Source: Candidatus Iainarchaeum sp. (GTDB lineage Archaea; Iainarchaeota; Iainarchaeia; Iainarchaeales; CSSED10-239). Taken from it: a stretch of 64,000 nucleotides of DNA. This document shows, in pieces, positions 4,040 to 56,028 of the stretch; the first letter of the stretch is position 1; every line of letters starts with the position of its first letter. Below the pieces are notes generated by a model that saw only the letters and a program-made list of their open reading frames with translations, did no database searches and was not told the origin of the DNA. Both the position numbers and the translations under genes were made by a program. The DNA lies in contig JAQVTI010000001.1 in assembly GCA_028700115.1 (NCBI GenBank), forward strand, positions 107,798 through 171,797, in the 5' to 3' direction.

Positions 4040-4195
4040 CTATGGTCCTATAAATCCACATGCAGGGCAAACATATTCTTTAGATATAGATTTACATCTA
4101 TTACATCTAACAATTGTTGCTTTACCACAATTTGGACATTTAAATTTTGTAAAATCTTGATCTAATTCAACATTACAACTAGTACATTTTTCCAT
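4040..4195 (-). CDS. small Zn-ribbon protein (COG2888-like) commonly paired with aEF-1beta; not in ORF track
   Basis: Manual translation of minus strand gives MEKCTSCNVELDQDFTKFKCPNCGKATIVRCNRCKSISKEYVCPACGFIGP: four CxxC pairs, 51 aa. Lies immediately upstream of ef1b on the same strand. Confidence 0.6.
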   Translation of the reverse strand: MEKCTSCNVELDQDFTKFKCPNCGKATIVRCNRCKSISKEYVCPACGFIGP

Positions 4196-20192: not shown

Positions 20193-20304
20193 CTTAATTT
20201 TTTATTATTTAAAATATTATTTTAAAAAACAATAGATAATATAAAAAAGATAGAAAATGTTTATAAACATACTTTATTTAATGTTTTCTTACAATATAAA
20301 TAAT

Positions 20305-21273
20305 ATGGATAAAGAAAAAATATTTAAAGACTTAAAAAAGAAACAATATGGTATTTTTGGAGATCATAGTGCGGTAGAAATTTGTGAATGGAATAAAAAA
20401 GCATTAAGAGGAGAAGGAGTTTGCTATAAACAAAAATTTTATAATGCAGACTGTCACAGATGTGCACAAATTACCCCTGCTGTTATTTGGTGTCATCAAA
20501 ATTGTATTTTTTGTTGGAGACCTGCAAATTATATGAAAGAACATATTCTTAAAGGAAAAATAAATGAACCAAAAGAAATAATAGATAATCTTTTTGAAGA
20601 AAGAAAAAAATTATTAAACGGATTTGGAGGAAATCCAAAAGTAGATAAAGAATTTTATAAAGAAGCATTAATACCATCTCATGTAGCAATATCTCTTGCA
20701 GGAGAACCAACTATATATCCTAAAATAGGAGAACTTATAAATGAACTTAAAAGCAGAGAAGAAATTAAAACAATTTTTTTAGTAACAAATGGATTAGAAC
20801 CAAAAAGACTAAAAGAATTAAATGATAAAAATAATCTTCCAACACAATTATATTTATCTATAGAAGCATGTAATTATGATATGCATTTAAAAATAAACAG
20901 ACCAAAAATAAAAGACTCTTGGCAAAGACTAAATGAAACAATAAAACTAATGCCAATTTTAAATTGTAGACGGGTAGTAAGATTTACTTTAATAAAAGGA
21001 TTAAATGATTCTTTAGAATATATAGATGATTTTTTAAAAATGTTTGAAGAAACACAAACAGACTTTATAGAAATAAAATCATATATGTTTTTGGGGGAAT
21101 CAAGAGAAAATTTAAAAAAAGAAAATATGCCAACACATACAGAAGTAGAAAACTATGCTAAAGAAATTGAAAAAAGATCTGAAAATTACTCTGTAATAGA
21201 TAGACAAGTTGCTTCCAGAATAGTACTTTTAAAAAATAAGAATAGCAAATATAGAAATTTCATAAAAGATTAA
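20305..21273 (+). CDS. taw1: tRNA 4-demethylwyosine synthase Taw1 (TYW1 radical SAM)
   Basis: Radical SAM CxxxCxxC (CHQNCIFC). Three upstream Cys whose spacing matches the auxiliary cluster ligands of archaeal TYW1 (Cys about 27/40/53 then 63/67/70, counted from Met at 20305). Confidence 0.7.
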   Translation: MDKEKIFKDLKKKQYGIFGDHSAVEICEWNKKALRGEGVCYKQKFYNADCHRCAQITPAVIWCHQNCIFCWRPANYMKEHILKGKINEPKEIIDNLFEERKKLLNGFGGNPKVDKEFYKEALIPSHVAISLAGEPTIYPKIGELINELKSREEIKTIFLVTNGLEPKRLKELNDKNNLPTQLYLSIEACNYDMHLKINRPKIKDSWQRLNETIKLMPILNCRRVVRFTLIKGLNDSLEYIDDFLKMFEETQTDFIEIKSYMFLGESRENLKKENMPTHTEVENYAKEIEKRSENYSVIDRQVASRIVLLKNKNSKYRNFIKD

Positions 21274-21274
21274 T

Positions 21275-22138
21275 ATGGAAGAAAAATACAAACAAAAAAT
21301 AATAAAAGAAATAACAACAAATAAAACAATTTGTTTATTAGCACCTTCTTTTCCAGTAGATTTCAAATATCCAGATATAGTATATAAACTGAGACAAATT
21401 GGATTTGATAAAATATTTGAATTAACATATGCGGCAAAAATAATTAACCAACATTATCATACAATAATAAAAAATGAAAACAAAAAACAATTTATAGCAG
21501 CAAATTGCCCATGTACAATAACATATATAGAAAATCAATTTCCTGAATTTAAAAAAAACATAATAAACATTGCATCACCAATGGTAGTAATGGCAAGATT
21601 TTCAAAAAAAAAATATCCAAAAAAAAAATGTGTTTTTATAGGACCTTGCCTTGCTAAACAACAAGAAGCAAAAAAAAATAAAGAAGTAGATTTTGCAATA
21701 ACATTTAAAAACCTATATGAAATATTTAAATATTTTGAAAAAGAAAAAAAATTTAGAAAAATTAAAAAATCAAAAAAAAATTTGCAATTTGATTCATTAT
21801 ATAATGATTATACAAAAATATATCCATTATCAGGAGCAGTTGCAAAAACAATGCATTATAAAAAAATACTTAAAAAAAATCAAATAATTGTTGCAGATGG
21901 GGTTATAAAAATTAAAGAAGCACTTGAAAAAATGAAAATTAATAAAAATATAAAATTCTTAGATGCACTTTTTTGTAAAGGAGGATGCATTGGAGGACCA
22001 GGAATTATTTCTAAAAATAATTTAAATACAAAAATTAAAAAAATAAAAGAATATAGAAAAAATGCAAAAAAAGAAAAAATAGGAAAACATAAAGGATTAT
22101 TTAAATATTCTAAAAATTTAAATGTAAAAAGAAAATAA
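21275..22138 (+). CDS. [FeFe]-hydrogenase large-subunit C-terminal (H-cluster) domain-like protein, stand-alone
   Basis: Three Cys motifs resemble H-cluster L1/L2/L3: ANCPCTI, IGPCLAKQQEAK (MPCxxKxxE-like) and FCKGGCIGGPG (CxxGCxxGGG-like). Starts 2 nt after the taw1 stop. Lys-rich tail. Confidence 0.4.
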   Translation: MEEKYKQKIIKEITTNKTICLLAPSFPVDFKYPDIVYKLRQIGFDKIFELTYAAKIINQHYHTIIKNENKKQFIAANCPCTITYIENQFPEFKKNIINIASPMVVMARFSKKKYPKKKCVFIGPCLAKQQEAKKNKEVDFAITFKNLYEIFKYFEKEKKFRKIKKSKKNLQFDSLYNDYTKIYPLSGAVAKTMHYKKILKKNQIIVADGVIKIKEALEKMKINKNIKFLDALFCKGGCIGGPGIISKNNLNTKIKKIKEYRKNAKKEKIGKHKGLFKYSKNLNVKRK

Positions 22139-22162: not shown

Positions 22163-23311
22163 TTAATCAACTAAACCATCACCAGTTACATTATATACAG
22201 CTTCACCATCTGGAAGAGAAGGAGAATCAACTAATTTTGCAATTCTTTTAGAACCAGTTCCTTTTCTTAAATAAACACGTGTTTTAGAAGCATGTTTTAC
22301 AACATTCCCACCAATTGCATCTGTTGGGTCTCCAAACAATATATCTGGTCGTGACATAACTTGATTTGTAACAAAAACAACAACATTATAAAGTTCTGCA
22401 ATCTTTTGTAAAAGTCTCATATGCTTATTGATTTTTTGTTGCCTATCTGATAATTGACCTCTACCAGTAAACTCAGATCTAAATTGACTAGTTAAAGAAT
22501 CAACAATTACAAGTTTAATATTTTTATCTTTAATTAAATCAACACCCTTTTCTGCAAGAAGCATTTGATGATCACTATTATATGCTCTTGCAACAAATAT
22601 ATTTTTCATAACCTTTTCAGGATCAAGTCCTCTATATTGAGCAATTTGAGACACTCTTTCAGGTCTAAAAGAATTTTCTGTATCAATATATAAAACAGCT
22701 CCATCTAAACCACCTTGATCTTTAGGAAGTTGAGCAGTAACACATAATTGAAAACACCATTGACTTTTTCCAGAAGCAAACTTTCCATAAACTTCTGTAA
22801 TTGATTGACTTTCAATTCCACCACCTAATAACTCATCAAGACTTGAAGAACCAGTAGTTATTCTTGAAATTAATTTTCTTCTATCTAAAATTTTTTCAGC
22901 ACTTTCAAAACCCATCTCAAGTGCATCTCTTGCAGCTTTAATTGCTTTTATAGCAGTACCTTCACCTAAAGATGCAACAGCAACAAGCTCCATAGGTGAT
23001 GCAACTGCAATAGATTCATAAGTTTCATAACCTGCGGCTTTTAATTTTTCTGCAGAAGTTGGACCAATACCAGGAAGATCAGTTATTTCTTTTGGTTTTA
23101 TTTTTTCTTTTATAGGATCATCTATAATTTCATCATCTACATCTACTGGAGAATCTAAATTATCATAATCTTCTACACCTTCTTGATAACTATCATCTAA
23201 ATTTTTATCTAAATTTATATTTTTTTTAGACATATTAAACACCTTCTTTTTATTTTTTATAAACTTTTTAAATTGCGTTTTATTTCTTGTGTTTCTCGCC
23301 TCACAAATCAT
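22163..23311 (-). CDS. radA: DNA repair and recombination protein RadA
   Basis: N-terminal HhH (ITDLPGIGPTSAEKLKAAGYETYESIA). RecA core Walker A GKFASGKSQ and Walker B LVIVDS. The likely true start is the internal MSKKN Met near nt 23233. An acidic low-complexity stretch precedes the HhH. Confidence 0.85.
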   Translation of the reverse strand: MICEARNTRNKTQFKKFIKNKKKVFNMSKKNINLDKNLDDSYQEGVEDYDNLDSPVDVDDEIIDDPIKEKIKPKEITDLPGIGPTSAEKLKAAGYETYESIAVASPMELVAVASLGEGTAIKAIKAARDALEMGFESAEKILDRRKLISRITTGSSSLDELLGGGIESQSITEVYGKFASGKSQWCFQLCVTAQLPKDQGGLDGAVLYIDTENSFRPERVSQIAQYRGLDPEKVMKNIFVARAYNSDHQMLLAEKGVDLIKDKNIKLVIVDSLTSQFRSEFTGRGQLSDRQQKINKHMRLLQKIAELYNVVVFVTNQVMSRPDILFGDPTDAIGGNVVKHASKTRVYLRKGTGSKRIAKLVDSPSLPDGEAVYNVTGDGLVD

Positions 23312-27450: not shown

Positions 27451-27756
27451 ATGAATTATAAATCATATCATTTATTTGAAGTAATATCTAATAAAACTAG
27501 ATGGAAAATAATAAGTACACTTTACAAATCAGAAAAATGCGTTAAAGAAATTTGTAAAGATATAAAAGAAGAACAATCAAAAGTTAGTCATAATCTAAAA
27601 ATATTATCTAATTGTAAAATTGTTTTTTATAAAAGAGAAGGGAAATATAAAACTTATTCTTTAAATAAAAAAACAATTATACCAATAATAGAAATTACAG
27701 AAAAACATATAGATAATTTTTGTAAAAAAGAAGGGTGTAAATTTAAAAAAGATTAA
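27451..27756 (+). CDS. ArsR/SmtB-family HTH transcriptional regulator
   Basis: HTH region VKEICKDIKEEQSKVSHNLKILSNCKIV. Precedes the iscS-iscU operon. Confidence 0.55.
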   Translation: MNYKSYHLFEVISNKTRWKIISTLYKSEKCVKEICKDIKEEQSKVSHNLKILSNCKIVFYKREGKYKTYSLNKKTIIPIIEITEKHIDNFCKKEGCKFKKD

Positions 27757-27758
27757 AT

Positions 27759-28904
27759 ATGAAACAAATTTATTTAGATTATGCTGCTACTACACCTGTA
27801 GTTAAAGAAGTATATGATGAAATGAAAGATTATTTTTTAAAAAATTATGGAAATACATCTAGTCTTCATATACTTGGACAAAATGCAGATGAAAAAGTAG
27901 AAAAAGTAAGAGAAAAAATTAAACAAAAATTAAATGCAAAAGATCACAAAGTAATTTTTACTTCAGGAGGAACAGAAAGTAATAACTTAGCTATTAAAGG
28001 ATTAGTTTATGCAAACAAAGAAAAAAAACATATAATTATTTCAAAAATAGAACATGATTGTATTTTAAAAACTGCAAAATTTTTAGAAAAACAAGGATAT
28101 GAAGTCACATATTTAAATGTTGATAAAGAAGGTTTTATTGATTTAAAACAATTAGAAAAATCTATTAAAAAAGAAACTATATTAGTTTCAATAATGCACG
28201 CAAACAATGAAATAGGAACTTTGCAAAATCTTAAAGAAATTGGAAAAATTTGTAAAGAAAAAAAGGTTTTATTTCATACAGATGCTTGTCAAAGTTTTAC
28301 AAAAGAAAAAATAGATTTAGAAGAATTTAATATAGACTTGATTACAATAAATGCACATAAAATTTATGGCCCTAAAGGAATTGGAGCATTAGTTATTAAA
28401 AATGGAATTAAACTAACCCCTTTATTACATGGAGGGGGACACGAATATGGTTTTAGAAGTGGAACTTTAAATGTACCTGCTATTATTGGCTTTGGAAAAG
28501 CAATAGATGTAATTTCTAAAGAAGATATTAAAAAAATGATCGATTTAAGAAATTACATGATTAAAGAAATTTTAAAAAAAATACCAACTTCTAAACTAAA
28601 TGGACCTACAGAAAATAGACTTTGTAATAATTTAAATTTTTTATTTAATTATATAGAAGGAGAATCAATTCTTTTACAATTAGATATGGAAGGAATATGT
28701 ATTTCAACAGGATCTGCATGTTCATCAAATACACTTGAAACAAACCACGTAGCAAATGCTATTGGAATACCAAAAGATAAGGCAAATGGAATTATAAGGA
28801 TATCTTTAGGAATAGAAACAACTAAAGAAGAAACAGATATTTTTATTGAAAAATTAATTAAAATTGTAAAAAGACTTACAGACATGTCTCCTCTTACAAA
28901 ATAA
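27759..28904 (+). CDS. iscS: cysteine desulfurase (IscS/NifS, class V aminotransferase)
   Basis: TSGGTESNN; PLP Lys in INAHKIYGPKG; active-site Cys loop STGSACSS. Confidence 0.85.
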   Translation: MKQIYLDYAATTPVVKEVYDEMKDYFLKNYGNTSSLHILGQNADEKVEKVREKIKQKLNAKDHKVIFTSGGTESNNLAIKGLVYANKEKKHIIISKIEHDCILKTAKFLEKQGYEVTYLNVDKEGFIDLKQLEKSIKKETILVSIMHANNEIGTLQNLKEIGKICKEKKVLFHTDACQSFTKEKIDLEEFNIDLITINAHKIYGPKGIGALVIKNGIKLTPLLHGGGHEYGFRSGTLNVPAIIGFGKAIDVISKEDIKKMIDLRNYMIKEILKKIPTSKLNGPTENRLCNNLNFLFNYIEGESILLQLDMEGICISTGSACSSNTLETNHVANAIGIPKDKANGIIRISLGIETTKEETDIFIEKLIKIVKRLTDMSPLTK

Positions 28905-28923
28905 GCTTTAAAGAAAATTAATT

Positions 28924-29382
28924 ATGCAAAATATAAAATATTCTAAAAAAGTTAAAGAACATTTTCTACATCCACACAATATGGGTAAAATAAAAAATGC
29001 AGATGGTATTGGAAAACTTGGAAACCCAGCTTGTGGGGATGTAATGTATATTTATTTAAAAATTATAAAAAAAAATGAAAAAGAAATAATTAAAGATATT
29101 AAATTTCAAACAATGGGATGTGCAGCTGCAATATCAACATCTTCAATGATTACAGATATAGTAAAAGGAAAAACTTTAGAAGAAGCTTTTAAAATAACTA
29201 ACAAAGATGTTGCAAAAGAATTAGATGGATTACCACCAATAAAAATGCATTGTTCTAATCTTGCTGCAGATGTTTTAAAAGAAGCAATAAAAGACTATTA
29301 TAATAAACAAAAAAATAGAAAAATAAAATATGAAAAAACAGCATGTTATAAATGTTGTGATTCTAAAAAAGAAATGGATTGA
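28924..29382 (+). CDS. iscU: Fe-S cluster assembly scaffold IscU/NifU
   Basis: GNPACGDVMY, FQTMGCAAAIS and MHCSNLAA: three scaffold Cys in canonical contexts. Confidence 0.85.
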   Translation: MQNIKYSKKVKEHFLHPHNMGKIKNADGIGKLGNPACGDVMYIYLKIIKKNEKEIIKDIKFQTMGCAAAISTSSMITDIVKGKTLEEAFKITNKDVAKELDGLPPIKMHCSNLAADVLKEAIKDYYNKQKNRKIKYEKTACYKCCDSKKEMD

Positions 29383-29645: not shown

Positions 29646-30995
29646 TTAAATAAATTTTAAAATATCAGATAAATCTTTTGGATCTTTAAAACAAATAACA
29701 TTATTTTTTTCTAAAGTTTCTAAAAAAATATTTGTTTGAAAACCACCAATTGCTAAAACAAATATTGGTTTCTTACTTTTTTTTCTAATATTTATAATTT
29801 CAATTAAAATATCTTGATTAATAGTAGATAATTGAAATAAAAATAATAAAATTAAACAAGAAATATTTTTATCATTTAAACAAATATTTATAGTTTTTAT
29901 AAATCTAAAATTATCACAATCTCCAGTAAGATCTAAAGGATTTTTAATAACAGCATAACTTGGAACAATTTTTTTAATTTTTTCAAAAGACTTTTTTGAA
30001 ATTGAAGGTAAATTAAAACCATTAAAATCTAATTGATCAGAAGTTAAAACTCCAAACCCACCACCATTTGTAATTATTTGGATATTAGAAAGATCTAAAT
30101 AATCATAATTTGAAAAAACTTTTGCAAGAGAAAACATTTCTGAAATAGAATTAACTAGATATGCCCCAGATTGTTTACAAGCAGATTTAAAAACATCAAA
30201 AGACCCAGCAATTGCAGCTGTATGTGACGTTGCTGCAACAATTCCTTTATTTGATATTCCTCCTTTTAAGATAATTATTTTTTTAGACTTTGATACTTTT
30301 TTTAAAGTTTTTAAAAAAAGATTACCATCTTTAATTCCTTCAATATAACATAAAATAATTTTAGTATTTTTCTCATTTTCTAAACTTAATAATAAATCAG
30401 ATTCAGAAATATCTAAAGAATTACCATATGAAAAAAATTTACTAACACCTATATTTTCAAAATTAGCTCTATCTAAAAAAGATAAACCTAAAGCACCAGA
30501 TTGAGATATCAAAGATACATTCCCTTTTTGTGGGAATTTAACTTCAGAAGAAATAAATGAAGCATTTAAATTATTATATAGATCTACATACCCAAGGCAA
30601 TTTGGACCTAAAAGATTAATTTTATTTTTATCTAAGATATTTTTTAAATCTAAAGATAATTGTTTATTTCCAATTTCTAAAAAACCAGATGAAATTAAAA
30701 TAATATTTTTACAAGTTGTTTTAGATATATCTTTAATTACATCTAAAATAAGATTATGAGAAATGGCAATAATTACTATATCTATTTGTTTATTAATATC
30801 TAAAATTGACGAAAAAACTTTTTTATTAAAAATATATTTCCCAGAAAGTCTTGGATTTACATAAAAAACATCTTTTTTAAAAAAAGAAAGATTTTTAGAA
30901 ATAGTATAACCTATACTATTTTCTTTATCAGAAGCACCTATTAAACAAATAGAAGACACATTATAAAAAGTATTTAAATTTTTCATATTTTTCAA
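29646..30995 (-). CDS. acetyl-CoA synthetase (ADP-forming) alpha-type subunit / CoA-binding domain protein
   Basis: N-terminal CoA-binding Rossmann (ICLIGASDKENSIGYTISKNL), then a succinyl-CoA-ligase-like flavodoxin domain. No beta (ATP-grasp) subunit adjacent. Confidence 0.55.
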   Translation of the reverse strand: MKNMKNLNTFYNVSSICLIGASDKENSIGYTISKNLSFFKKDVFYVNPRLSGKYIFNKKVFSSILDINKQIDIVIIAISHNLILDVIKDISKTTCKNIILISSGFLEIGNKQLSLDLKNILDKNKINLLGPNCLGYVDLYNNLNASFISSEVKFPQKGNVSLISQSGALGLSFLDRANFENIGVSKFFSYGNSLDISESDLLLSLENEKNTKIILCYIEGIKDGNLFLKTLKKVSKSKKIIILKGGISNKGIVAATSHTAAIAGSFDVFKSACKQSGAYLVNSISEMFSLAKVFSNYDYLDLSNIQIITNGGGFGVLTSDQLDFNGFNLPSISKKSFEKIKKIVPSYAVIKNPLDLTGDCDNFRFIKTINICLNDKNISCLILLFLFQLSTINQDILIEIINIRKKSKKPIFVLAIGGFQTNIFLETLEKNNVICFKDPKDLSDILKFI

Positions 30996-31138: not shown

Positions 31139-31705
31139 ATGAATCAAAAAAGTGAAATAATATTTTATGGAAGAGGTGGACTTGGAGCAAAAACAGCAGC
31201 ACAAATTCTTGCAGAAGCAGCAAATATAGAAGAAAAAAATATCCAAGCTTTTCCAGAATATGGTCCAGAAAGAAGAGGAGCACCTGTTAGATCTTTTGTT
31301 AGAATATCAGATAAACATATAAGAGTGCATGAACCAATTTTAAATCCAGACTACATAGTTGTAATTGATTCAAACTTATTTGATGTTATTGAAAATTTAA
31401 AAGAATTTAATGGAACTTATATAATTAATACAAATAAACCTAAAGATTATTTTAAAAAAATTCTTAAAAATAAAAAATTTATTTTAATAGATGGAACTAA
31501 GATTGCTTTAGAAAATCTAAAAATAAATAATCCAAATATAGTTTTGATTGGAGCTTTAATTAAACAAAGTAAAATTATTAAATTAAGTTCTGTTGAAAAA
31601 ATAATTGAAGAAGAATTTACAAAAAAAGGAAAAGAATATTTTATTAAGCCTAATTTAAAATGTTTAAATGAAGGTTATAATTATAATTTTAAAAAGAAAA
31701 AATAA
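31139..31705 (+). CDS. porG: pyruvate:ferredoxin oxidoreductase gamma subunit
   Basis: IFYGRGGLGAKTAAQILAEAA start typical of Por gamma. First gene of the porGDAB order. Confidence 0.8.
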   Translation: MNQKSEIIFYGRGGLGAKTAAQILAEAANIEEKNIQAFPEYGPERRGAPVRSFVRISDKHIRVHEPILNPDYIVVIDSNLFDVIENLKEFNGTYIINTNKPKDYFKKILKNKKFILIDGTKIALENLKINNPNIVLIGALIKQSKIIKLSSVEKIIEEEFTKKGKEYFIKPNLKCLNEGYNYNFKKKK

Positions 31706-31727
31706 ATAAATTTAGGATAAAATAAAT

Positions 31728-32042
31728 ATGGAAAATAAAAAAAAATCTAAAGAACTACCAATTGGAAGTATACTTCCAGGAGGAACTTCAACTAAAAACA
31801 AAACAGGTTCTTGGAAAGATAAAGTTCCTGTTTGGGATGAAAAAAAATGTATTCATTGTATGATATGTTATAATAAATGCCCAGAAAACTGTATTCTTGC
31901 ACAAGTTAAAGCAGGAAAAATTAAAAGAACAAAAACAGATTTAGAATACTGCAAAGGTTGTGGAATTTGTGCAAAGGTTTGTCCAGTTGGAGCAATAACT
32001 ATGAAAGATGCAAGTGAAGTTGAAAAAGAAAATAAAAAATGA
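31728..32042 (+). CDS. porD: pyruvate:ferredoxin oxidoreductase delta subunit (2x[4Fe-4S] ferredoxin)
   Basis: CIHCMICYNKCP and CKGCGICAKVCP. Confidence 0.85.
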   Translation: MENKKKSKELPIGSILPGGTSTKNKTGSWKDKVPVWDEKKCIHCMICYNKCPENCILAQVKAGKIKRTKTDLEYCKGCGICAKVCPVGAITMKDASEVEKENKK

Positions 32043-32056
32043 ATTTGTGAAAAATT

Positions 32057-33217
32057 ATGAAAAATAAAAAAATGGCATTAACAGGTGGAGAAGCAATCTC
32101 ATATGCTTTAAAACAAATTAATCCAGATGTTGTGGCGATGTATCCAATAACTCCACAAACTCCTATTATTGAAAGATATTCAAAATATGTTGCAGATGGA
32201 GAAGTAGATACTGAACTAATTAGAGTTGAATCAGAACACTCTGCACTTTCAGCCACAATCGGAGCTGCTGCTTCAGGGTCTCGTGCAGTTACAGCAACAG
32301 CTTCTCAAGGTTTACTTTATATGTTTGAAGTTTTATCTGTTGCTTCAGGACTAAGACTTCCAATTGTTATGCCTGTTGTAAATAGAGCAATATCTTCTCC
32401 AATAAACATACACTGCGATCATTCAGATTCAATGTCTGCAATTGATCAAGGTTGGATGCAAGTATATTGTCAAAATGCACAAGAAAGTTATGAAATGACT
32501 TTATTTGCAACTAAGCTTGCAGAAAAAGTAAACTTACCTATTATGGTTTGTCAAGATGGATTTATAACTTCCCATAATCTAGAAAACATAGAAGTTTTTA
32601 ATGATAATAAAGTTAAAAAATTTATTGAGGACTACAAACCAGCATATAATTTATTAGATGTAGATAAACCTATATCAATTGGACCTTTAGCCTTAACAGA
32701 TTATTATTTTGAAATAAGAGCACAATTATTTGAAGCTTTTTCAAAAATTAAAAAAGAATTTAAAGAAATTTCAAATGAGTTTAAAGAAACTTTTGACATG
32801 AAAATTAATTTTTTAGAAAAATATAAATCAAATGATGCAGAAATTATTTTTATATGCTTAAGCTCAACTGCTGAAAGTATAAAAGATGTAATTGATACTT
32901 ATAGAGATAATGGTTATAAGGTAGGACTTGTAAGACCAGTTTTATTTAGACCATTTTTTTATGAAGAATATGCAAAAGAATTAGAAAATGCAAAAACAGT
33001 AGTTGTTTTAGATAGATCTGAAGGTCCAGGAAGCCATGCACCTTTGTTTAAAGACATAGTTATTTCTTTAACAAACATAGAAAAAAGACCAGAAGTTTTT
33101 TCTTTTGTTTATGGACTTGGTGGAAGAGAGATTTATCAAAAAGATATATGTAAATTATTAGATACTTTAATCTCTGGTAAGCTTCCAAAAAGTAAATATA
33201 TTGGACTTAGAGAATAA
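32057..33217 (+). CDS. porA: pyruvate:ferredoxin oxidoreductase alpha subunit
   Basis: ALTGGEAISYALKQINPDVVAMYPITPQT N-terminal signature of POR/KOR alpha. Confidence 0.85.
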   Translation: MKNKKMALTGGEAISYALKQINPDVVAMYPITPQTPIIERYSKYVADGEVDTELIRVESEHSALSATIGAAASGSRAVTATASQGLLYMFEVLSVASGLRLPIVMPVVNRAISSPINIHCDHSDSMSAIDQGWMQVYCQNAQESYEMTLFATKLAEKVNLPIMVCQDGFITSHNLENIEVFNDNKVKKFIEDYKPAYNLLDVDKPISIGPLALTDYYFEIRAQLFEAFSKIKKEFKEISNEFKETFDMKINFLEKYKSNDAEIIFICLSSTAESIKDVIDTYRDNGYKVGLVRPVLFRPFFYEEYAKELENAKTVVVLDRSEGPGSHAPLFKDIVISLTNIEKRPEVFSFVYGLGGREIYQKDICKLLDTLISGKLPKSKYIGLRE

Positions 33218-33236
33218 TTTTAAATTTGTGAAAAAT

Positions 33237-35672
33237 ATGAATAATTCAGAACTTGCAATAAAGATTAATGAAAATAAAAAATTAGTTCCAGGACATAGAA
33301 CATGTGCAGGATGCCCTATTGCTGTGATATTAAGAACAGCACTTGCTTCAACTGATAAAAAAATAGTTGTAGCTTCAGCTACTTCTTGTGCAGAAGTAAC
33401 TACTACAATATATCCTTATACATCTTGGAATGTTCCTTGGATGCATTCTGTTTTTGCAAATGCAGCTGCAACTATTTCAGGAATTGAAAGTTCTTATAAA
33501 GCTTTAAAGAAAAAAGGCAAAATAAAAAAAGATATTAGATTTTTAGCTTTTGGTGGAGATGGTGGATGTTACATTCCAAAAACAAAAATATTAACTACAG
33601 AAGGTTTTAAAAATGTAGAAAAAATAACTACAAAAGATTTAATTTGGTCAATAAATCCAAAAAATAAAACTTTAGAAAAATCAAAAATAAAAAAAATGCA
33701 TAAATATAATTATAATGAAAAAATAATTTCTGTAAATCACAATTTTGTACATTTTGATGTATCTTTACAACACAACATTCCAATTTATAATAAATTAAAT
33801 AACAAAATAGAAGCTATTAAAGCACATGAATTATTAAATTATGGTAGAAGTGATAAAATAAATATAATAACAGGTGATTTAAACTGGAAAGGTAAAAATA
33901 AAAAATATTTTGAATTACCAAAAATTAAATACAACAAAAATTCAAATAATAAAAAGGACATACCTAAAATAAATATGAAAATTTGGTTAGAATTTTTTGG
34001 ATATTGGATATCTGAAGGACACCTTTCAAAACATAATAGTAAAAGAAATATATACAACACTTTTATATCTCAAACAAAAAAAGCAACTATTAAAAAAATA
34101 GATAAATGCTTAAAACAAACTAAAATAAATTATTGGTATAATAAAGATAGATTTTGTATAAGTAATCAAAAATTATGGGTATATTTAGAACAATTTGGAA
34201 AAGCAAAAGACAAATATATTCCTCAAGAATTTAAAGAATTATCAAAAGACTATTTACAAATATTATTAAATTCATTAATGGAAGGAGACGGCACAATAAT
34301 TAAAAGACTTAAAAGCACAGCTTATTCTTATAGTACAATTTCAAAAAAATTAAAAGACGATGTAATTGAAATTGCACTTAAATTAGGATATAGAGTGCAT
34401 TTAGATGAAAGAACTAGAAAAAACAGAAAAGAATACAGTATATCTTTTTCAAATTACAAACCAACAAGATTAGCAAACCTAAGAAAAAAACACATCACAA
34501 ATTATAATTATAAAGGAAAAATATATTGTCCAGAATTAGAAAAAAACCACATCATGGTTATTGAAAAAGATGGGCGAATAAGTTTAAATATGAATAGTTT
34601 CGACATTGGACTTCAAAGTCTATCAGGAGCATTAGAAAGAGGACATGATTTTACATATATATGTTATACAAACGAAGGATATATGAATTGTTTATCTACA
34701 GATTCACTAATTATGACTGAATCAGGATTAAAACAAATTACAGAAATTAAAAAAGGAGAAAAAGTTTGGGCTTTTGATCAAAAAACATATCAACCTGTTT
34801 TAAAAAAATGCACAGGTGTATTTGATAATGGTAGAAAAAAAGTATATGAAATTGAAACTATACATCAAAATATAAAAGCAACATCTAATCATCCGTTCTT
34901 AGTATTAAAAAGAAATAAAAATAAAGAAAATGAATTTGTTTGGAAAACAGTTACAGAACTTAAAAAAGATGACGAAATTGTAACTCTTAAAAAGAAATTT
35001 TATAAAAACTTAGATATAAATAAAAATCTAAAAAATGATTATAAAATACAAAATAATCATTATTTTATAATAAGAAAAATAAAAAATATAATTCCTAGAA
35101 AAATAGAACAAACATTAGATTTAAGAGTTGAAGGAGAACACAATTTTATTGCAAATGGAATTGTTGTTCATAACACAGGAAATCAGAGATCTTCAGCAAC
35201 ACCTTATGGAGCATCAACAACTACAACTCCTTCTGGAAAAGTTTCTTTTGGTAAAGAAAAATTCCAAAAAGATCTTGCACAAATTATAATTGCACACAAC
35301 ATACCTTATGTGGCAACTGCAAATCCAGAATTCCAAATTGATATGTATGAAAAAATGAAAAAAGCTTTTGAAACAAAAGGACCTTCATTTATTTTAATTT
35401 TTGCAGCATGCCCTACAAACATGAAAGCAGATCCATCAGAGACATTTACAATTAGTAAAATGGCTACTGAGACAAATTACTTCCCACTTTATGAATATGA
35501 GAATAGAAAATATAAAATTAATTATAAACCTTTTAAAAAAGTTCCAATTGAAGAATTTTTAAAACTACAAACAAAATTTAGAGAAGTTTTAAAAGATAAA
35601 AAAGAAATTAAAATCATACAAGAACACGTAGATGAAAAATGGAATAGTATTCTAAAAAAGGAAGAAAAATAA
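33237..35672 (+). CDS. porB: pyruvate:ferredoxin oxidoreductase beta subunit (TPP-binding) interrupted by two inteins
   Basis: Extein pieces CAGCP, AFGGDGG / SFDIGLQSLSGALERGHDFTYICYTNEGYMN / TGNQRSSATPYGAS match the PorB TPP motif. Excising 343 aa and 162 aa leaves about 306 aa, the normal PorB size. Start taken at the Met after the porA stop. Confidence 0.8.
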   Translation: MNNSELAIKINENKKLVPGHRTCAGCPIAVILRTALASTDKKIVVASATSCAEVTTTIYPYTSWNVPWMHSVFANAAATISGIESSYKALKKKGKIKKDIRFLAFGGDGGCYIPKTKILTTEGFKNVEKITTKDLIWSINPKNKTLEKSKIKKMHKYNYNEKIISVNHNFVHFDVSLQHNIPIYNKLNNKIEAIKAHELLNYGRSDKINIITGDLNWKGKNKKYFELPKIKYNKNSNNKKDIPKINMKIWLEFFGYWISEGHLSKHNSKRNIYNTFISQTKKATIKKIDKCLKQTKINYWYNKDRFCISNQKLWVYLEQFGKAKDKYIPQEFKELSKDYLQILLNSLMEGDGTIIKRLKSTAYSYSTISKKLKDDVIEIALKLGYRVHLDERTRKNRKEYSISFSNYKPTRLANLRKKHITNYNYKGKIYCPELEKNHIMVIEKDGRISLNMNSFDIGLQSLSGALERGHDFTYICYTNEGYMNCLSTDSLIMTESGLKQITEIKKGEKVWAFDQKTYQPVLKKCTGVFDNGRKKVYEIETIHQNIKATSNHPFLVLKRNKNKENEFVWKTVTELKKDDEIVTLKKKFYKNLDINKNLKNDYKIQNNHYFIIRKIKNIIPRKIEQTLDLRVEGEHNFIANGIVVHNTGNQRSSATPYGASTTTTPSGKVSFGKEKFQKDLAQIIIAHNIPYVATANPEFQIDMYEKMKKAFETKGPSFILIFAACPTNMKADPSETFTISKMATETNYFPLYEYENRKYKINYKPFKKVPIEEFLKLQTKFREVLKDKKEIKIIQEHVDEKWNSILKKEEK
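33567..34595 (+). mobile_element. intein 1 in PorB (343 aa) with LAGLIDADG homing endonuclease domain
   Basis: Inserted right after the GGDGG of the TPP motif. Starts CYIPKTKILTTEGF (block A) and ends ..ISLNMN, followed by Ser (+1). Carries two LAGLIDADG motifs (FFGYWISEGH and LLNSLMEGDGTI). The penultimate residue is Met rather than His. Confidence 0.65.
34689..35174 (+). mobile_element. intein 2 in PorB (162 aa mini-intein, no endonuclease)
   Basis: Inserted after YMN of YICYxNEGYMN. Starts CLSTDSLIMTESG and ends GIVVHN, followed by Thr (+1): textbook Hint-domain termini. Confidence 0.8.
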
Positions 35673-35686
35673 AAAAGGTTTTAATT

Positions 35687-36394
35687 GTGCCAAACATCTC
35701 AACACATGCAAAAATAATTAAAGAAGTTTATTCTAAAAATAAAAAATTTAATTTAGATTATTTAGTATCTGGAAGTATATTTCCAGATTATTACTATTTT
35801 TTAAAATATCAAAAATATAATGACCCCACTAATTTACTACATTCTAAACTTGCAAAAAGATACTCAGAAAAACTAATTAAATCTGCAAAAAACAAAAAAG
35901 AACTTTCTTTTGCAATAGGTGTTTATTCACACATTATAGTTGACCAAAAAGTTCATGCATATTTAAGAAAAAACAAACTTGAAAAAAACATAAATCACCT
36001 AGTAATTGAACATTTTTTAGAGATAAAACAACATACACCTGTTAACAAAATATTAATTTGTAAAAATTTAATTAAAAGAACTATTCCTAAAAAATATTAT
36101 ATACATTTAAAAAAAATAAATTTATTTAATTCAATTAAATTTATTTTATTTAATAAAACTATATTTTTTTTAATAAAACAAAAATACATAAATAAAAAAA
36201 GATCTAAGAAAAAAAGTATATGGAATTTAATTTTAAGAATAGGTTATAAAAGACCACTTAAAAGAGTAGAGTTTACAGATATAGAAAAAATAGTAAATCC
36301 TAATTTTAAATTAAAAAAACATATAAAAAATATAGAAAAAGAAATAAATTTATCTAAAAAAGAAATAATTAAAAAAATCAAAGAATTAATTTAA
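35687..36394 (+). CDS. hypothetical protein, weak resemblance to Zn-dependent phospholipase C-like (H-rich N-terminus)
   Basis: ISTHAKIIKEV ... SGSIFPDYYY. Basic C-terminus. Low confidence. Confidence 0.25.
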   Translation: MPNISTHAKIIKEVYSKNKKFNLDYLVSGSIFPDYYYFLKYQKYNDPTNLLHSKLAKRYSEKLIKSAKNKKELSFAIGVYSHIIVDQKVHAYLRKNKLEKNINHLVIEHFLEIKQHTPVNKILICKNLIKRTIPKKYYIHLKKINLFNSIKFILFNKTIFFLIKQKYINKKRSKKKSIWNLILRIGYKRPLKRVEFTDIEKIVNPNFKLKKHIKNIEKEINLSKKEIIKKIKELI

Positions 36395-37573
36395 TAATTC
36401 TTTAACATCTCTAATCATTTGTAATTCTTCATTTGTTGGAATAACTAAAACTTTAATTAAACTATCTTCTGATGAAATTATTAATTCATTTGAATTATTT
36501 TTACTTTCATCTAACTTAAGTCCTAAAAAACTAAAATGATCTAAAACAAGTTTTCTTAAAAAAGGAGAATGCTCTCCAACTCCTCCTGTAAAAACAATTA
36601 CATTTATTCCTTTCATCTCAGAAATGTATGCACCAATTATTTTAATTATTCTATTTACTAAAATATCATTTGCAAGAGTACAATCTTTACAACCTTTAAT
36701 TGCATTTTCTTCAATATACCTATGATCACTTGATTGCTTAGATATTCCTAAAAGCCCAGATTGTTTATTTATTAATTTTTTAATATCTTCTTTAGAATAA
36801 CCATTTTCTAATAAAAATAAAATTATTTCAGGATCAAAACTTCCAGATCTAGTTCCCATTGGAAGACCATCTAAAGGAGTAAAACCCATAGAAGTATCAA
36901 AACTTTTACCATTTTTAATAGCACATATACTTTGACCATTCCCTAAATGACATGTAATTATATTTATTGAATCATAATCTTTTTCTAAAATCTCACATGC
37001 TTTTCTTGAAACAAACTTATGAGAGGATCCATGAAAACCATAACTTCTAATTTTAAATTTTTCATAAAGCTCTATTGGAAGAGCATATAAATAATTTTCT
37101 AAAGGTATAGTTGAATGGAATGCTGTATCAAAAACCCCAAAATGCTTTGTAGATTCTGGCAAATGACCTTTTAAAATTTCAACACATTTTAAATTTACAG
37201 GATTATGAAGCGGTGCTAAAAAATTATATTTTTTTAAATCTTCTAAAACCTCAGAAGTAAGCTCTGTTGTTTTATTATATTTTTCAGCTCCATGAACAAT
37301 TCTATGAACAACATAATTAATTTCAAAAAAAGAAGTAATAATATTATTTTCTATTAAAAAATCTAAAAGATTAGAAACAGCTAAATCATGTTCTAAAATA
37401 TCAAACTCATCTTTTAATTTTTTATCATTAAATTTAATTTTTCTAAGACAAGTTCTACCAGAAACTCCAATTCCATCAAATTGTCCAACAATTAATGTTT
37501 TTTCATTTTCAAAATCGGCTAATTCAAATTTTAAAGAACTACTACCTGCATTAATTACTAAAATATTACTCAT
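36386..37573 (-). CDS. ackA: acetate (or short-chain acyl) kinase
   Basis: MSNILVINAGSSSLKFEL N-terminal signature. ASKHA fold motifs (VHRIVHGAEK, GFHGSSH). Confidence 0.8.
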   Translation of the reverse strand: MSNILVINAGSSSLKFELADFENEKTLIVGQFDGIGVSGRTCLRKIKFNDKKLKDEFDILEHDLAVSNLLDFLIENNIITSFFEINYVVHRIVHGAEKYNKTTELTSEVLEDLKKYNFLAPLHNPVNLKCVEILKGHLPESTKHFGVFDTAFHSTIPLENYLYALPIELYEKFKIRSYGFHGSSHKFVSRKACEILEKDYDSINIITCHLGNGQSICAIKNGKSFDTSMGFTPLDGLPMGTRSGSFDPEIILFLLENGYSKEDIKKLINKQSGLLGISKQSSDHRYIEENAIKGCKDCTLANDILVNRIIKIIGAYISEMKGINVIVFTGGVGEHSPFLRKLVLDHFSFLGLKLDESKNNSNELIISSEDSLIKVLVIPTNEELQMIRDVKELLN

Positions 37574-40899: not shown

Positions 40900-43044
40900 A
40901 TGTGTTCGATTGCAGGTAGCTTTAATTTAACTCAAAGCATCAAAAATTGTTATGAAATGAATGTTTTAATGCAAAAAAGAGGTCCTAACCACACATCTTT
41001 TGCACACATCAAAGATAATAAAGTATATATTTATGAATATACAGATAGATTTGAACAAAACAATACAATAAGCCATAATTTACTTGCAATTGTAGGAAAC
41101 ATATCTCAACCTATAAAATATAAAAACACATTAATTACATCTAATTGTGAGATATATAATTGGAAAGAAATTTGTAAAAAAGAAAAAATAAATGCAAGAA
41201 ATGACTCAGAGATGTTAATTAAACTTTTTGAGAAAGAAAAAGTAAATAAGAAAACTTTAGAAAAACTAGATGGAGCATATGCATTTTGTTTCTGGAAAGA
41301 AAACAAAATTTATCTTGCAAGAGATATTTTAGGAGTAAAACCTTTATGGTTTTCATATGAGAACAAAAGTTTTTGTTTTGCATCAGAAAAAAAAGCCTTA
41401 GAAAAAATTGGACGAGAAAAAATAGAATTTTTAGATCCAAGAAAGATTTTAATTTATGATATTAATAAAAATCTAATTAACTATAAAAAAAGAGAATTTA
41501 TAAAAATTAAAGAAAATAAAAATGGTTTAGAAAAAAATAAAAAAATAATTCAAGAAAAATTAGAACAAGCAATTATTAAAAGAATTCCAGAAAAAAAACT
41601 AGCACTTCTTTTTAGTGGAGGAATAGATTCTACAATAATTGCAATGATTCTTAAAAAACACAAAATAGATTTTACAGCATACTTTGCACATCTTAAAGGA
41701 TATAATGAAAATAAAGATTTAGAATATGTTAGAGAGATTGCAAAAAAATATAAAATTAAATTAAAAATTAAAAGTTTAGATTATAAAGACTTAGAAAAAA
41801 ATATTAAACAAGTTGTAAAAACTATTGAATCAACTAACCCTATTAAAATAGGAGTTGGCTTACCTATTTATCTTGCAAGTAAACTTGCTTCAAAAGATAA
41901 AAATAAAGTTATTTTTTCAGGACTTGGTTCTGATGAGATTTTTGCAGGATATAATAGATTTAAAGAATCTAAACATATTCAAAAAGACACACTTAATCTA
42001 CTTTATCAAATACATGAAAATGATTTAAATAGAGACGACTCTCTTACAATGGAAAACAGTATTGAGTTAAGACTTCCTTTTTTAGATTTACCTTTAATTA
42101 AAGAAGTAATTGGAATTGAAGATAAACAAAAAATTAACTCTGAAGAAAATAAAATTATCTTAAGAGAGATTTCAAAAGAATATAGTCTAGATGAAAAATA
42201 TTTTAAAAGAAAAAAAGTTGCTGCACAATATGGTTCTGGGTTTGATAAAGGAATAATTAAACTTTCAAAAGAAAATAAATTTAAATCAAAATCAGAATAT
42301 CTAAAAACTTTTTTAGAAAAGCAGAATCTTAATTTAGGATGTTTATATTCTTCTGGAAAAGACTCTAATCTTTCTTTAAATATTCTAAAAAAACAAAATT
42401 ATAAAATAAAATGTTTAATTTCTATTATTCCAGAAAACAAAGACTCATACATGTATCAAACTCCTGATTTAAAAATTTTAAAAGCACAATCAGAATGTAT
42501 AGAAATACCTTTAGTTTTAGGAAAAACAAAAGGTGAAAAAGAAAAAGAATTAATTGATCTTAAAAAAGTAATTAAAAAAGCAAAAGATAAATACAATCTG
42601 CAAGGAATTGTCTCAGGTGCATTATTTAGTAACTACCAAAGAGAAAGAATTCAAAACATATGTAATGATTTAGGTTTAAGATTGTTTTCACCTCTATGGA
42701 ATATAAACCAAGAAAAAGAAGTTTTGAAATTAATAAAAGAAAAATTTGATTTTAGAATTGTTAAAATTGCTGGATATGGACTAAATAAAGATTGGTTTTT
42801 AAGAAAAATAGATTTAAAAGCTTTAGAAGAACTTAAAAAACTAAATAAGAAATATGGTTTCAATGTAGCAGGAGAAGGTGGAGAATTTGAAACTATTGTT
42901 TTAGACTCACCTGATTTTAAAAAAAAAATAAAAGTTATAGACTACAAGATAAATTTAGAAAATGAATTTACTGGTGAAATTGAAATTAAAAAAATAAAAA
43001 TAGAAGAAAAAAGAAAAACTAATTCTAACAAGTACAACCAATAG
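40900..43044 (+). CDS. asparagine synthetase-like glutamine amidotransferase (Ntn Cys2 + PP-loop) fused to a C-terminal Dph6/MJ0570-type (DUF71, ATP_bind_4) PP-loop domain
   Basis: MCSIAG N-terminal nucleophile; SGGIDST PP-loop at about residue 235. The C-terminal approximately 230 aa carry a second PP-loop SSGKDS and the EGGEFET motif characteristic of diphthine-ammonia ligase-type enzymes. Confidence 0.6.
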   Translation: MCSIAGSFNLTQSIKNCYEMNVLMQKRGPNHTSFAHIKDNKVYIYEYTDRFEQNNTISHNLLAIVGNISQPIKYKNTLITSNCEIYNWKEICKKEKINARNDSEMLIKLFEKEKVNKKTLEKLDGAYAFCFWKENKIYLARDILGVKPLWFSYENKSFCFASEKKALEKIGREKIEFLDPRKILIYDINKNLINYKKREFIKIKENKNGLEKNKKIIQEKLEQAIIKRIPEKKLALLFSGGIDSTIIAMILKKHKIDFTAYFAHLKGYNENKDLEYVREIAKKYKIKLKIKSLDYKDLEKNIKQVVKTIESTNPIKIGVGLPIYLASKLASKDKNKVIFSGLGSDEIFAGYNRFKESKHIQKDTLNLLYQIHENDLNRDDSLTMENSIELRLPFLDLPLIKEVIGIEDKQKINSEENKIILREISKEYSLDEKYFKRKKVAAQYGSGFDKGIIKLSKENKFKSKSEYLKTFLEKQNLNLGCLYSSGKDSNLSLNILKKQNYKIKCLISIIPENKDSYMYQTPDLKILKAQSECIEIPLVLGKTKGEKEKELIDLKKVIKKAKDKYNLQGIVSGALFSNYQRERIQNICNDLGLRLFSPLWNINQEKEVLKLIKEKFDFRIVKIAGYGLNKDWFLRKIDLKALEELKKLNKKYGFNVAGEGGEFETIVLDSPDFKKKIKVIDYKINLENEFTGEIEIKKIKIEEKRKTNSNKYNQ

Positions 43045-44299
43045 CTGCACAACTTTTACCCCAAGCAGTTGCCATTGCTTGACAAAGTGCGACATTACCG
43101 TCTGTAGATGACCTATAAAACATATCACTTGTATCAGTTGTAATCGAAACATTCCATGAAGATAAATTTCTATTCATTTTAGTTCTACCAAACATATAAT
43201 ACATAGTAGATACATTTGAAACATCCCAATTAGATAAATCTTGGTTAAAATTACTTGCATATGCGAACATATTACGCATATTATTAATATTTGAAACATC
43301 CCAATTATTCATATTAGAAACATAAGATACATTTGAACAATTTCTAAAAAAACCTTCTAAACTAGTAACCCCATTTAAATCTAAAATATCAGTTGCAGTT
43401 ATACTAGTTAAATTACTACAACCATAAAATGCATTTGTACTAAATTTTGGGTTAAACCCCCCCCAATGAGATATATTTGTAATTTTAGGATAATCTCCAG
43501 AAGCATTAAAAGACCAACCTTGAATAGTTCCAAACATATTTACATCATAAATTCCTGATGAAGAATAAGTATGTAATTTATCAGAATCATCATAAGAAGT
43601 TATTTCTGAAGTAGTCCCATCTCCCCAATCTACTGTAAAATCATAATTACCTTCAGAAACTAAAGGTAAAGATATTTGATTAGCTTCACTAGATCCAGTA
43701 GAAGTTTTTGTAGTATCCCAAGTTGAAGAAAAATAAGGAATTATACAATCTTGACCACATGAAGAAATTGTTTCATCTCCATTACAAGTTCCATCTCCAC
43801 AATAAGGTGCATTATCACATGAAACAAGACTTGCTCCTAAATAACTTACAGGAATAGAAATATATTTACCATCATTAGTTTTTAATTCTAAAATAAATTC
43901 TTTTGAAGGAATACATATTATATCTAATTGATTACTTCTATTTGGATTAATAACTAAAGGAGTTTCTAAAGTATATTCTGTGTTTATAAAATTTGTATTT
44001 TCTGCGGTTGTAGAAATTAATTTATATGCAACAACATTTAAATCTTTATTAAAATTGTTATTTTCTAAAACAACTTTAGAATAATCCCCAGACATACTTT
44101 CATAAACAGATCTGTATTTTATAAACCCATCTAAATCTGATTTATCATAAGTAACTACAGAAGATTCATCTAGATTAGATGTAGTAAAATCTTTTGAAAA
44201 AGAAACAATTCCTGCAATTAAAACAACTGAAACTAAAACAATTAAAACAGTTGCAATTAATGGAGAAATTGCTTTTTTATAAAAATCATTGCCAAACAT
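43025..44299 (-). CDS. surface protein with archaeal class III (pilin-type) signal peptide, Cys-rich module and C-terminal DUF285/BspA-like repeats
   Basis: Start taken at MFGNDFYKKA-ISPLIATVLIVLVSVVLIAG (archaeal pilin N-domain-like). The longer track ORF begins at 44383. CGDGTCNGDETISSCGQDC module. Repeats NFNQDLSNWDVSNVSTMYYMF / NLSSWNVS..DMF typical of DUF285. Confidence 0.55.
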   Translation of the reverse strand: MFGNDFYKKAISPLIATVLIVLVSVVLIAGIVSFSKDFTTSNLDESSVVTYDKSDLDGFIKYRSVYESMSGDYSKVVLENNNFNKDLNVVAYKLISTTAENTNFINTEYTLETPLVINPNRSNQLDIICIPSKEFILELKTNDGKYISIPVSYLGASLVSCDNAPYCGDGTCNGDETISSCGQDCIIPYFSSTWDTTKTSTGSSEANQISLPLVSEGNYDFTVDWGDGTTSEITSYDDSDKLHTYSSSGIYDVNMFGTIQGWSFNASGDYPKITNISHWGGFNPKFSTNAFYGCSNLTSITATDILDLNGVTSLEGFFRNCSNVSYVSNMNNWDVSNINNMRNMFAYASNFNQDLSNWDVSNVSTMYYMFGRTKMNRNLSSWNVSITTDTSDMFYRSSTDGNVALCQAMATAWGKSCAAIGCTC

Positions 44300-44360
44300 A
44301 TATAAACAATTATAAAAAATATTTAAAAACATATTTATTATTAAATAAAAATTAAAAAAA

Positions 44361-56004: not shown

Positions 56005-56028
56005 AACTAATTTTATTTTTATAAAAAA
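55976..56028. repeat. left copy of 53-bp perfect direct repeat (aaaaaactatgctttttgaaaaagcataaaactaattttatttttataaaaaa)
   Basis: Identical to 57485..57537. The pair brackets the AAA-ATPase gene. Confidence 0.9.

Follow-up and report, generated by a model that had tools for sequence, protein, structure and literature searches.

The 64-kb window analysed here (contig JAQVTI010000001.1 of Candidatus Iainarchaeum sp., positions 107,798 to 171,797; coordinates below count from its first nucleotide) is archaeal DNA of about 22% G+C. It carries the gene for the radical S-adenosylmethionine (SAM) enzyme 4-demethylwyosine synthase, taw1, directly followed on the same strand by hydA, which encodes a single-domain [FeFe] hydrogenase (Table 1). 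This arrangement probably reflects a small, ferredoxin-linked, H2-evolving enzyme expressed by way of a constitutive tRNA-modification gene.

The first gene had been called Taw1 in a first-pass annotation made from the sequence, and this identity holds. Its product scored 366.6 bits against TIGR03972 (rSAM_TYW1), above the curated cut-off of 317.95, and matched both the Wyosine_form domain PF08608 (E 1.2e-20) and PF04055. P. horikoshii TYW1 (2YX0; E 9.8e-78), in which the CYKQKFY segment containing the substrate lysine is identical, aligned with it over the full length, as did the M. jannaschii enzyme (6DJT). Both Fe-S cluster motifs are kept; residue numbers are those of the 338-amino-acid (aa) open reading frame (ORF) starting at 20257. 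The ATG at 20305 is the second in frame (codon 17), and both starts are possible, homologue alignments beginning at about residue 24-30. By profile and motif, the ORF 20257/20305-21273 is a bona fide Taw1/TYW1.

The hydA product matched PF02906 (Fe_hyd_lg_C) over residues 18-242 with an E-value of 1.1e-40, covering profile positions 3-245 of 245. No Fer4 or any other second domain was matched in the profile search. The protein contains seven cysteines, of which C20 is the only one upstream of the L1 motif. The AlphaFold2 (AF2) model, based on an alignment of 32 homologues, reached a pLDDT of 89.1 and a pTM of 0.88, and the 50 best PDB matches listed by Foldseek were all [FeFe] hydrogenases (TM 0.69-0.77), including CbA5H, CpI and HydABC. 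Ligand positions were compared with CpI by sequence alignment, not from coordinates. In the phmmer alignment, AANCP, GPCLAKQQE and FCKGGCIGG of HydA correspond to TSCCP, MPCTSKKFE and ACHGGCVNG of CpI; C78, C125, C234 and C238 are the equivalents of C300, C355, C499 and C503, and K128 and E131 those of K358 and E361. These results bear out the first-pass description of a stand-alone H-cluster domain, without ferredoxin domains, whose L1, L2 and L3 cysteines match the H-cluster ligands: the match to the full profile is significant, and structure prediction also gives a hydrogenase fold, here with condensed loops.

Group E "ultraminimal" [FeFe] hydrogenases have been defined in DPANN archaea as enzymes consisting of the H-domain only, with a mean of 286 residues (Greening et al., Cell 2024, PMC11216029), which the 287 residues of HydA fit. 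The group representative is the protein of Candidatus Forterrea multitransposorum (Fm). The Forterrea chromosome (CP045477) was returned as locus L003 in our scan of GTDB species representatives, and the only hydrogenase-like gene found there encodes a 286-aa protein that is 55% identical to HydA over 279 residues (E 7e-114). Because of this identity, HydA is assigned by homology to group E, a kind of enzyme known since 2024, and not to Nar1-like proteins. The first-pass remark that such proteins are rare in archaea is thus outdated by the DPANN enzymes described that year. Reconstituted Fm holds one [4Fe-4S] cluster; it accepted synthetic [2Fe]adt, showed H-cluster signatures in Fourier-transform infrared spectra and turned over H2 in vitro (PMC11216029). 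On an electrode it catalysed both directions but favoured proton reduction, and the H-cluster is exposed to solvent in the published models (PMC11216029). The maturases HydE, HydF and HydG (HydEFG) are absent even from the closed Forterrea genome, an alternative H-cluster maturation pathway was postulated for archaea, and group E was presented as archaeal and monophyletic (PMC11216029).

HydA resembles Fm in its size, its H-domain-only architecture and its C-x-N-C-P, GPC..K..E and C..GGC motifs, the first without its leading Cys in the window protein. The taw1-hydA order is also shared, and HydEFG were found for neither (window scan; Forterrea genome, PMC11216029). The two differ in that window HydA has Ala for the clade's Cys at the CpI T297 position plus a unique Cys at the G302 position, and is followed by radA where Forterrea has a convergent SUF operon. 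Chlamydomonas reinhardtii HydA1, a minimal group A enzyme of M1 type, is likewise an H-domain without F-clusters, shares the four Cys and the K358 equivalent, and is reduced directly by ferredoxin; it differs in its length (457 aa), longer loops, full proton relay including the Cys, and need for HydEFG, and its phmmer E-value against window HydA is only about 3e-5. The closest characterised homologue of Fm is the group C sensory hydrogenase HydS of Thermotoga maritima (28% identity; group C is sister to group E, PMC11216029). HydS is multidomain, regulatory and biased to H2 oxidation, whereas window HydA is single-domain.

Table 1. Features of the taw1-hydA locus and of its surroundings in the window.
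Feature	Position	Strand	Basis or remark
taw1 (4-demethylwyosine synthase, radical SAM)	20305..21273; longest ORF from 20257	+	TIGR03972, PF08608, PF04055, 2YX0
Taw1 auxiliary-cluster motif C43-x12-C56-x12-C69, with CYKQKFY lysine	20383..20463	+	translation; aligned to P. horikoshii TYW1
Taw1 radical SAM motif CHQNCIFC (C79, C83, C86; CX3CX2C)	20491..20514	+	motif scan
Operon junction: taw1 TAA 21271-21273, T at 21274, hydA ATG from 21275	21271..21277	+	sequence
hydA, group E "ultraminimal" [FeFe] hydrogenase, H-domain only, 287 aa	21275..22138	+	PF02906, Ca. Forterrea identity, AF2 and Foldseek
LLAPSF motif, equivalent to CpI A230-P231-S232, contacts [2Fe] cyanide (CN) ligand	21335..21352	+	family alignments
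L1 motif IAANCPC; C78 equivalent to ligand C300 of CpI, N77 in place of proton-relay C299	21494..21514	+	phmmer; residue table
L2 motif GPCLAKQQE (equivalents of CpI C355, K358, E361)	21641..21667	+	alignments
L3 motif LFCKGGCIGGPG (equivalents of CpI C499 and bridging C503)	21968..22003	+	alignments
RadA gene	22163-23311		downstream of hydA
PEP-synthase-like protein, 709 aa	23632-25761	+	window context
ArsR-type regulator, cysteine desulfurase (class V aminotransferase), NifU/IscU scaffold	27451..29382	+	HTH_5, Aminotran_5, NifU_N
ADP-forming acetyl-CoA synthetase alpha subunit	29646-30995		window context
porC-porD-porA-porB, pyruvate:ferredoxin oxidoreductase	31139..35672	+	POR_N, PFOR_II, Fer4, TPP_enzyme_C, Intein_splicing; TIGR02175 PorC
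Acetate kinase	36386-37573		window context

Residue conservation was scored over 79 family members from the fetched loci, archaea and bacteria together. All four ligand cysteines were invariant, as were the equivalents of CpI A230/P231, S323/P324, K358 and E361, and the S232 equivalent was Ser in all but one aligned sequence. Such strict conservation of the [2Fe] pocket across two domains of life, contacts to the CN ligands included, argues for an occupied [2Fe] site in vivo.

The classical proton relay is absent from HydA, CpI C299, E279, S319, E282 and R286 being represented by N77, Q59, I97, H62 and K66, respectively. At the C299 position, Asn is found in all 52 sequences of the window clade, Val or Ala in Nanoarchaeota and Pro in a clade of candidate phyla radiation (CPR) bacteria using genetic code 11. 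The other four positions are not conserved across the family. A Cys stands two residues before the Asn (C-x-N-C-P; CpI T297 position) in 51 of the 52 clade sequences, window HydA being the sole exception, with A75 (A-A-N-C-P-C) and a unique C80 at the CpI G302 position. This C80 may be a relocated functional thiol or neutral variation.

hydA had been reported to start 2 nt after the taw1 stop, which corresponds to a gap of one nucleotide, and the proposed operon-like pair is upheld both by this gap and by its conservation in relatives. Because the genes lie on the same strand, 1 nt apart, in a conserved pairing, we infer that hydA is co-transcribed with taw1. A promoter and terminator scan returned 17 sigma-70-like sites against 19.5 expected and no terminators, and was uninformative for an AT-rich archaeon.

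The pairing is conserved well beyond the window. When 80 GTDB loci were searched by tblastn with window Taw1, hydA proved in 18 cases to be immediately preceded on its own strand by a taw1 gene (59-73% identity). These 18 are every archaeal GTDB locus of the window clade (Iainarchaeota, Forterrea, "Diapherotrites"; 18/18). An independent metagenome scan, in which some loci duplicate GTDB genomes, found taw1 one to three genes upstream of hydA in 28/28 Iainarchaeota-type loci with upstream sequence. By our own ORF calls, the intergenic distance in GTDB loci ranges from -4 to +45 nt, with many gaps of 0-1 nt and most archaeal loci between -4 and +16 nt; with the metagenome relatives included, the range is -4 to +56 nt, save one 288-nt call in L104. 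The divergent block upstream of the pair (DsbA-like/ArgRS/c9) is also syntenic in relatives, and the 3' side of hydA is variable, occupied by radA, a convergent SUF operon or other genes; hydA therefore marks the end of the conserved block. Even where the upstream context differs (L009, L017, L026), the pair is kept. The two-gene taw1-hydA unit goes back to the ancestor of the Iainarchaeota clade.

The pairing is not obligate, since locus L084 (194-2360) has taw1 followed by radA, with 70 nt between them and no hydA. The L084 Taw1 is 63% identical to that of the window and nested within the hydA-linked Taw1 clade, and the locus looks like a clean presence/absence polymorphism at exactly the same site. 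In L081 and L083, where taw1 is more divergent (57-58% identity), its neighbours are different genes. In these two loci, from other DPANN-type archaea, a conserved ORF of 133-144 aa overlaps the taw1 3' end (L081 6061-6495, L083 6062-6463), with genes for AdoMet decarboxylase and spermidine synthase next after it. The overlapping ORF belongs to no family and has no Cys motif; it was rejected as a redox partner for want of any Fe-S motif. Five metagenome loci have an extra co-directional ORF between taw1 and hydA, of 255 aa in L092, L096 (split) and L126 and of 192 aa in L099 and L102. These were considered as a flavodoxin- or ferredoxin-like third partner and rejected, having neither a family match nor a Cys motif.

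On the 3' side, the convergent SUF operon (SufU-like, SufD-like and conserved genes of 481 and 255 aa) occurs in L001, L003, L005 and L007. It likewise runs convergently into hydA in L086, L088 and L089.

HydA homologues are not confined to archaea. A protein search returned more than 1000; the best 120 span 258-333 aa, carry PF02906 only, and come in many cases from SR1/Absconditabacteria and related candidate-phyla bacteria. Minimal homologues are common in CPR bacteria using genetic code 25 (SR1/Absconditabacteria, Gracilibacteria-type), and 35 GTDB loci use this code, with in-frame TGA inside hydA; they also occur in some code-11 Patescibacteria. The CPR proteins (GTDB loci L013-L066, metagenome loci L093-L160) measure 283-320 aa and are 45-52% identical to window HydA. 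The SR1 homologue P0058/L027 (RAAC1_SR1_1, CP006913) is publicly named "NtrC family signal transduction histidine kinase", probably a mis-annotation and perhaps one carried over from the sensory group C hydrogenases.

A bootstrapped neighbour-joining tree separated Iainarchaeota plus code-25 CPR from Nanoarchaeota plus code-11 CPR in 100/100 replicates; the branching order inside the first of these groups was not settled. This split is incompatible with archaeal monophyly and therefore implies, as far as the tree goes, inter-domain transfer and an archaeal group E that is not monophyletic, contrary to its presentation in PMC11216029.

The surroundings of hydA in the window fit a role in fermentation. 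Genes for pyruvate:ferredoxin oxidoreductase (PFOR), including PorD with its two [4Fe-4S] clusters, lie 9 kb downstream, and those for the ADP-forming acetyl-CoA synthetase alpha subunit and acetate kinase are in the window as well. An entire pathway by which reduced ferredoxin can be produced and consumed is thereby present in the window. A 51-aa ORF with eight Cys (4040-4195), taken up as a possible ferredoxin partner, is a zinc ribbon and was rejected. The PorB ORF (33201-35672, + strand) is 823 aa long, far above a typical PorB; this beta subunit (TPP_enzyme_C) is interrupted by an intein that is several hundred residues long and includes a LAGLIDADG homing-endonuclease domain.

No HydE, HydF or HydG was recognisable by motif and family scans within the 64-kb window, in agreement with the first-pass annotation, which had seen no maturases nearby. 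Apart from Taw1, none of its 71 ORFs has a CX3CX2C motif. The P-loop ORFs are RLI, CMP kinase, MCM, a FlaI-like ATPase, RadA and one 447-aa ORF (56019-57362) without a family match; HydF was rejected among them.

We favour, with a probability of roughly 60%, the view that HydA is a group E hydrogenase which evolves H2 with electrons from ferredoxin, and that its horizontally exchanged gene, transcribed together with taw1, is expressed by way of this constitutive neighbour. The single H-domain would hold one [4Fe-4S] cluster ligated by C78, C125, C234 and C238, with C238 bridging to the [2Fe] subsite. HydA having no accessory clusters, electrons would be exchanged directly with a small low-potential carrier, as homology to Fm suggests. 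This carrier would most likely be ferredoxin reduced by the PFOR, with the electrons released as H2 during fermentation of pyruvate to acetate. Protons would reach the H-cluster by a route other than the classical relay. A horizontally exchanged hydA placed at the 3' end of a constitutive gene would ride on the taw1 promoter, and the pairing would perhaps be reinforced if Taw1 and HydA draw on the same low-potential carrier. We do not read the pairing as demonstrating a dedicated complex between Taw1 and HydA.

Several points weigh against this reading. The proton-relay Cys is replaced by Asn, and the remaining relay is gone too. HydEFG were found neither in the window nor, according to PMC11216029, in the Forterrea genome, which makes H-cluster assembly in vivo a presumption; Fm was matured by means of a synthetic cofactor (PMC11216029). 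Tight coupling of a bulk catabolic enzyme to a low-abundance tRNA-modification gene would be odd, and PFOR was not found among the clustered neighbour families checked in the 160 loci examined. Finally, the code-25 CPR homologues adjoin two other radical SAM genes, and the enrichment of CX3CX2C genes beside hydA is not explained by pure promoter capture.

These last two points also support a different proposal, namely that in the Iainarchaeota and code-25 CPR clade HydA is a dedicated redox partner that docks on radical SAM enzymes. The H2/H+ couple would then prime the radical SAM [4Fe-4S] clusters or dispose of surplus electrons, and HydA would be a stand-alone counterpart of the TYW1 flavodoxin domain. 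The gene order is UvrB, RimO-like, HydA, HemW-like, NusA in Gracilibacteria-type loci and UvrB, (x), HydA, RimO-like in SR1/Absconditabacteria-type loci; with RimO upstream in the former and downstream in the latter, the linkage survived rearrangement. The RimO-like proteins score 287 bits against the MiaB/RimO model TIGR00089 (cut-off 251), and the HemW-like proteins 160 bits, below their family cut-off of 205. Of 34 GTDB code-25 loci, 27 have a RimO-like or HemW-like gene no more than two genes away from hydA; in the metagenomes, 26 of 35 code-25 loci have one at a distance of up to about three genes. In the archaeal locus L126, a radical SAM gene of the TatD-linked type (95 bits, below cut-off) is convergent to hydA, so that three or four radical SAM families adjoin hydA in all. 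Overall, CX3CX2C genes make up 51 of 149 direct hydA neighbours versus 11 of 538 other flanking genes. In L044, L122 and L144, the HemW-like protein downstream of hydA carries a DUF559 (endonuclease-like) insert in its middle, giving 562-576 aa versus about 400. Small ORFs upstream of hydA in SR1-type loci were also considered as redox partners and rejected, as they are not flavodoxin-like.

The adjacency counts are not independent, because the loci are phylogenetically related. About two or three independent events underlie them, one involving Taw1 in Iainarchaeota, one RimO at the level of the code-25 ancestor (with the order swapped later) and one HemW in the Gracilibacteria-type loci. Radical SAM genes account for about 0.6-1.4% of genes in the examined regions, and for four lineages with two neighbours each the chance of such adjacency would be about 0.002-0.01, a rough inference and not a formal test. 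Plain synteny also contributes, because UvrB is linked to hydA in CPR as consistently as RimO. Moreover, none of 19 Nanoarchaeota and 8 code-11 CPR loci has a radical SAM neighbour; hydA keeps company there with RNase Z, an Sm-like protein and GlyRS, the Nanoarchaeota order being Sm-like, RNase Z, HydA, GlyRS with gaps of 120-450 nt.

Other observations bear on the same proposal from both sides. The first-pass annotation had suggested that the protein may donate electrons to Taw1, an idea to which the repeated radical SAM adjacency lends some support. The short gaps in most archaeal loci suggest translational coupling, and the H-cluster of the published models is exposed to solvent (PMC11216029). 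Archaeal Taw1 is single-domain and its physiological reductant is not defined, whereas eukaryotic TYW1 has a flavodoxin domain (PMC8941971, abstract). That domain is, like HydA, a redox module linked to TYW1, by fusion there and by operon here (PMC8941971); its fold is unrelated and its cofactor is flavin mononucleotide, not an H-cluster, so the analogy is functional and hypothetical only. On the other side, L084 has taw1 without an adjacent hydA, Fm is biased to proton reduction (PMC11216029), and the PFOR operon near hydA argues against an obligate partnership. A concatenated 625-aa query revealed no natural Taw1-HydA fusion, a weak negative, as only 8000 candidates were scored and self-hits were missed; it returned only Taw1-type proteins of 343-442 aa, one with PF01981 and none with PF02906. 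Literature searches gave nothing relevant linking a hydrogenase to Taw1 or radical SAM enzymes. We regard a dedicated partnership as the main rival reading, possible if unlikely. Its broader form is also doubtful: that the C-x-N-C-P clade hydrogenases are dedicated radical SAM redox partners, not bulk fermentative enzymes, and moved between domains, settling each time beside a radical SAM gene. The H2/H+ pair would then be coupled to radical SAM cluster activation or electron disposal in cells with minimal electron-carrier repertoires.

Could HydA instead be a [4Fe-4S]-only protein in vivo, serving neighbouring Fe-S enzymes as an Fe-S carrier, insertase or one-electron carrier in the manner of Nar1 or an apo-HydA? 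Nar1/NARFL, of the eukaryotic cytosolic iron-sulphur assembly (CIA) machinery, shares with HydA the H-domain fold, four conserved Cys and a setting in cells without HydEFG, and counts TYW1 and other radical SAM enzymes among its clients. Nar1 carries a further Cys4 cluster at its N terminus, however, and no longer has the residues of the [2Fe] pocket. Window HydA differs on both counts: it lacks the N-terminal Cys4 motif, and the residues needed only for [2Fe] (K358, P231/S232 and S323/P324 equivalents) are kept across the 79 archaeal and bacterial sequences, which would be difficult to reconcile with a permanently empty site. Together with the 55% identity to Fm, this speaks against the Nar1-like reading offered in the first-pass annotation. 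The neighbours of hydA are Fe-S enzymes, the SUF operon is convergent with hydA in four GTDB loci including Forterrea, and in the window an IscS/IscU pair (27759-29382) lies 5.6 kb from hydA, within the ArsR-led block that begins 5.3 kb downstream. The lack of HydEFG in the window and in the closed Forterrea genome, and the single [4Fe-4S] cluster of reconstituted Fm before cofactor addition (PMC11216029), would also suit such a role. However, Fm takes up [2Fe]adt and catalyses H2 turnover (PMC11216029), and we find a [4Fe-4S]-only function improbable.

That the neighbouring radical SAM enzymes serve a HydEFG-independent maturation of the H-cluster is hardly credible. In its favour, HydE and HydG belong to the radical SAM enzymes too, an alternative archaeal pathway has been postulated (PMC11216029) and the lineages examined are exactly those in which hydA has radical SAM genes at its sides. 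On the other hand, the neighbours are three unrelated housekeeping families (Taw1, above its equivalog cut-off, RimO/MiaB and HemW), the Nanoarchaeota and code-11 CPR homologues have none, and Taw1 keeps every catalytic motif and persists without hydA in L084.

Some other genes of the window are unusual in their own right. The PEP-synthase-like protein next to radA aligns to the 798-position PEP synthase model over positions 4-543 only; PPDK_N and mobile domains are present, its C-terminal 250 residues belong to no family, and the gene is kept beside radA in relatives (cluster c14). A 714-aa fusion at 40900-43044 (+ strand) joins a glutamine amidotransferase, an asparagine-synthase-like PP-loop module and Diphthami_syn_2. 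The product of 43025-44383, on the opposite strand, is 452 aa long, contains 13 Cys and carries a DUF285 (Mycoplasma-type repeat) domain, unusual for an archaeal genome.

The kind of enzyme and the missing HydEFG in DPANN archaea were already known (PMC11216029). The main text of that study makes no mention of "radical SAM", "tRNA" or "wyosine"; the present analysis goes beyond it in the radical SAM adjacency in both domains, the CPR membership and non-monophyly of group E, and the kept [2Fe] pocket without HydEFG. The repeated placement of hydA beside radical SAM genes in archaea and CPR bacteria seems not to have been described before, and it hints at a redox link. A conserved taw1 operon with a one-cluster hydrogenase bears on what physiologically reduces Taw1 in archaea and, more generally, radical SAM enzymes in ultra-small cells. 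The CPR homologues change the evolutionary picture of group E and widen the pool of minimal hydrogenases for engineering. Finally, strict conservation of the [2Fe] pocket in the absence of HydEFG sharpens the question of alternative H-cluster maturation.

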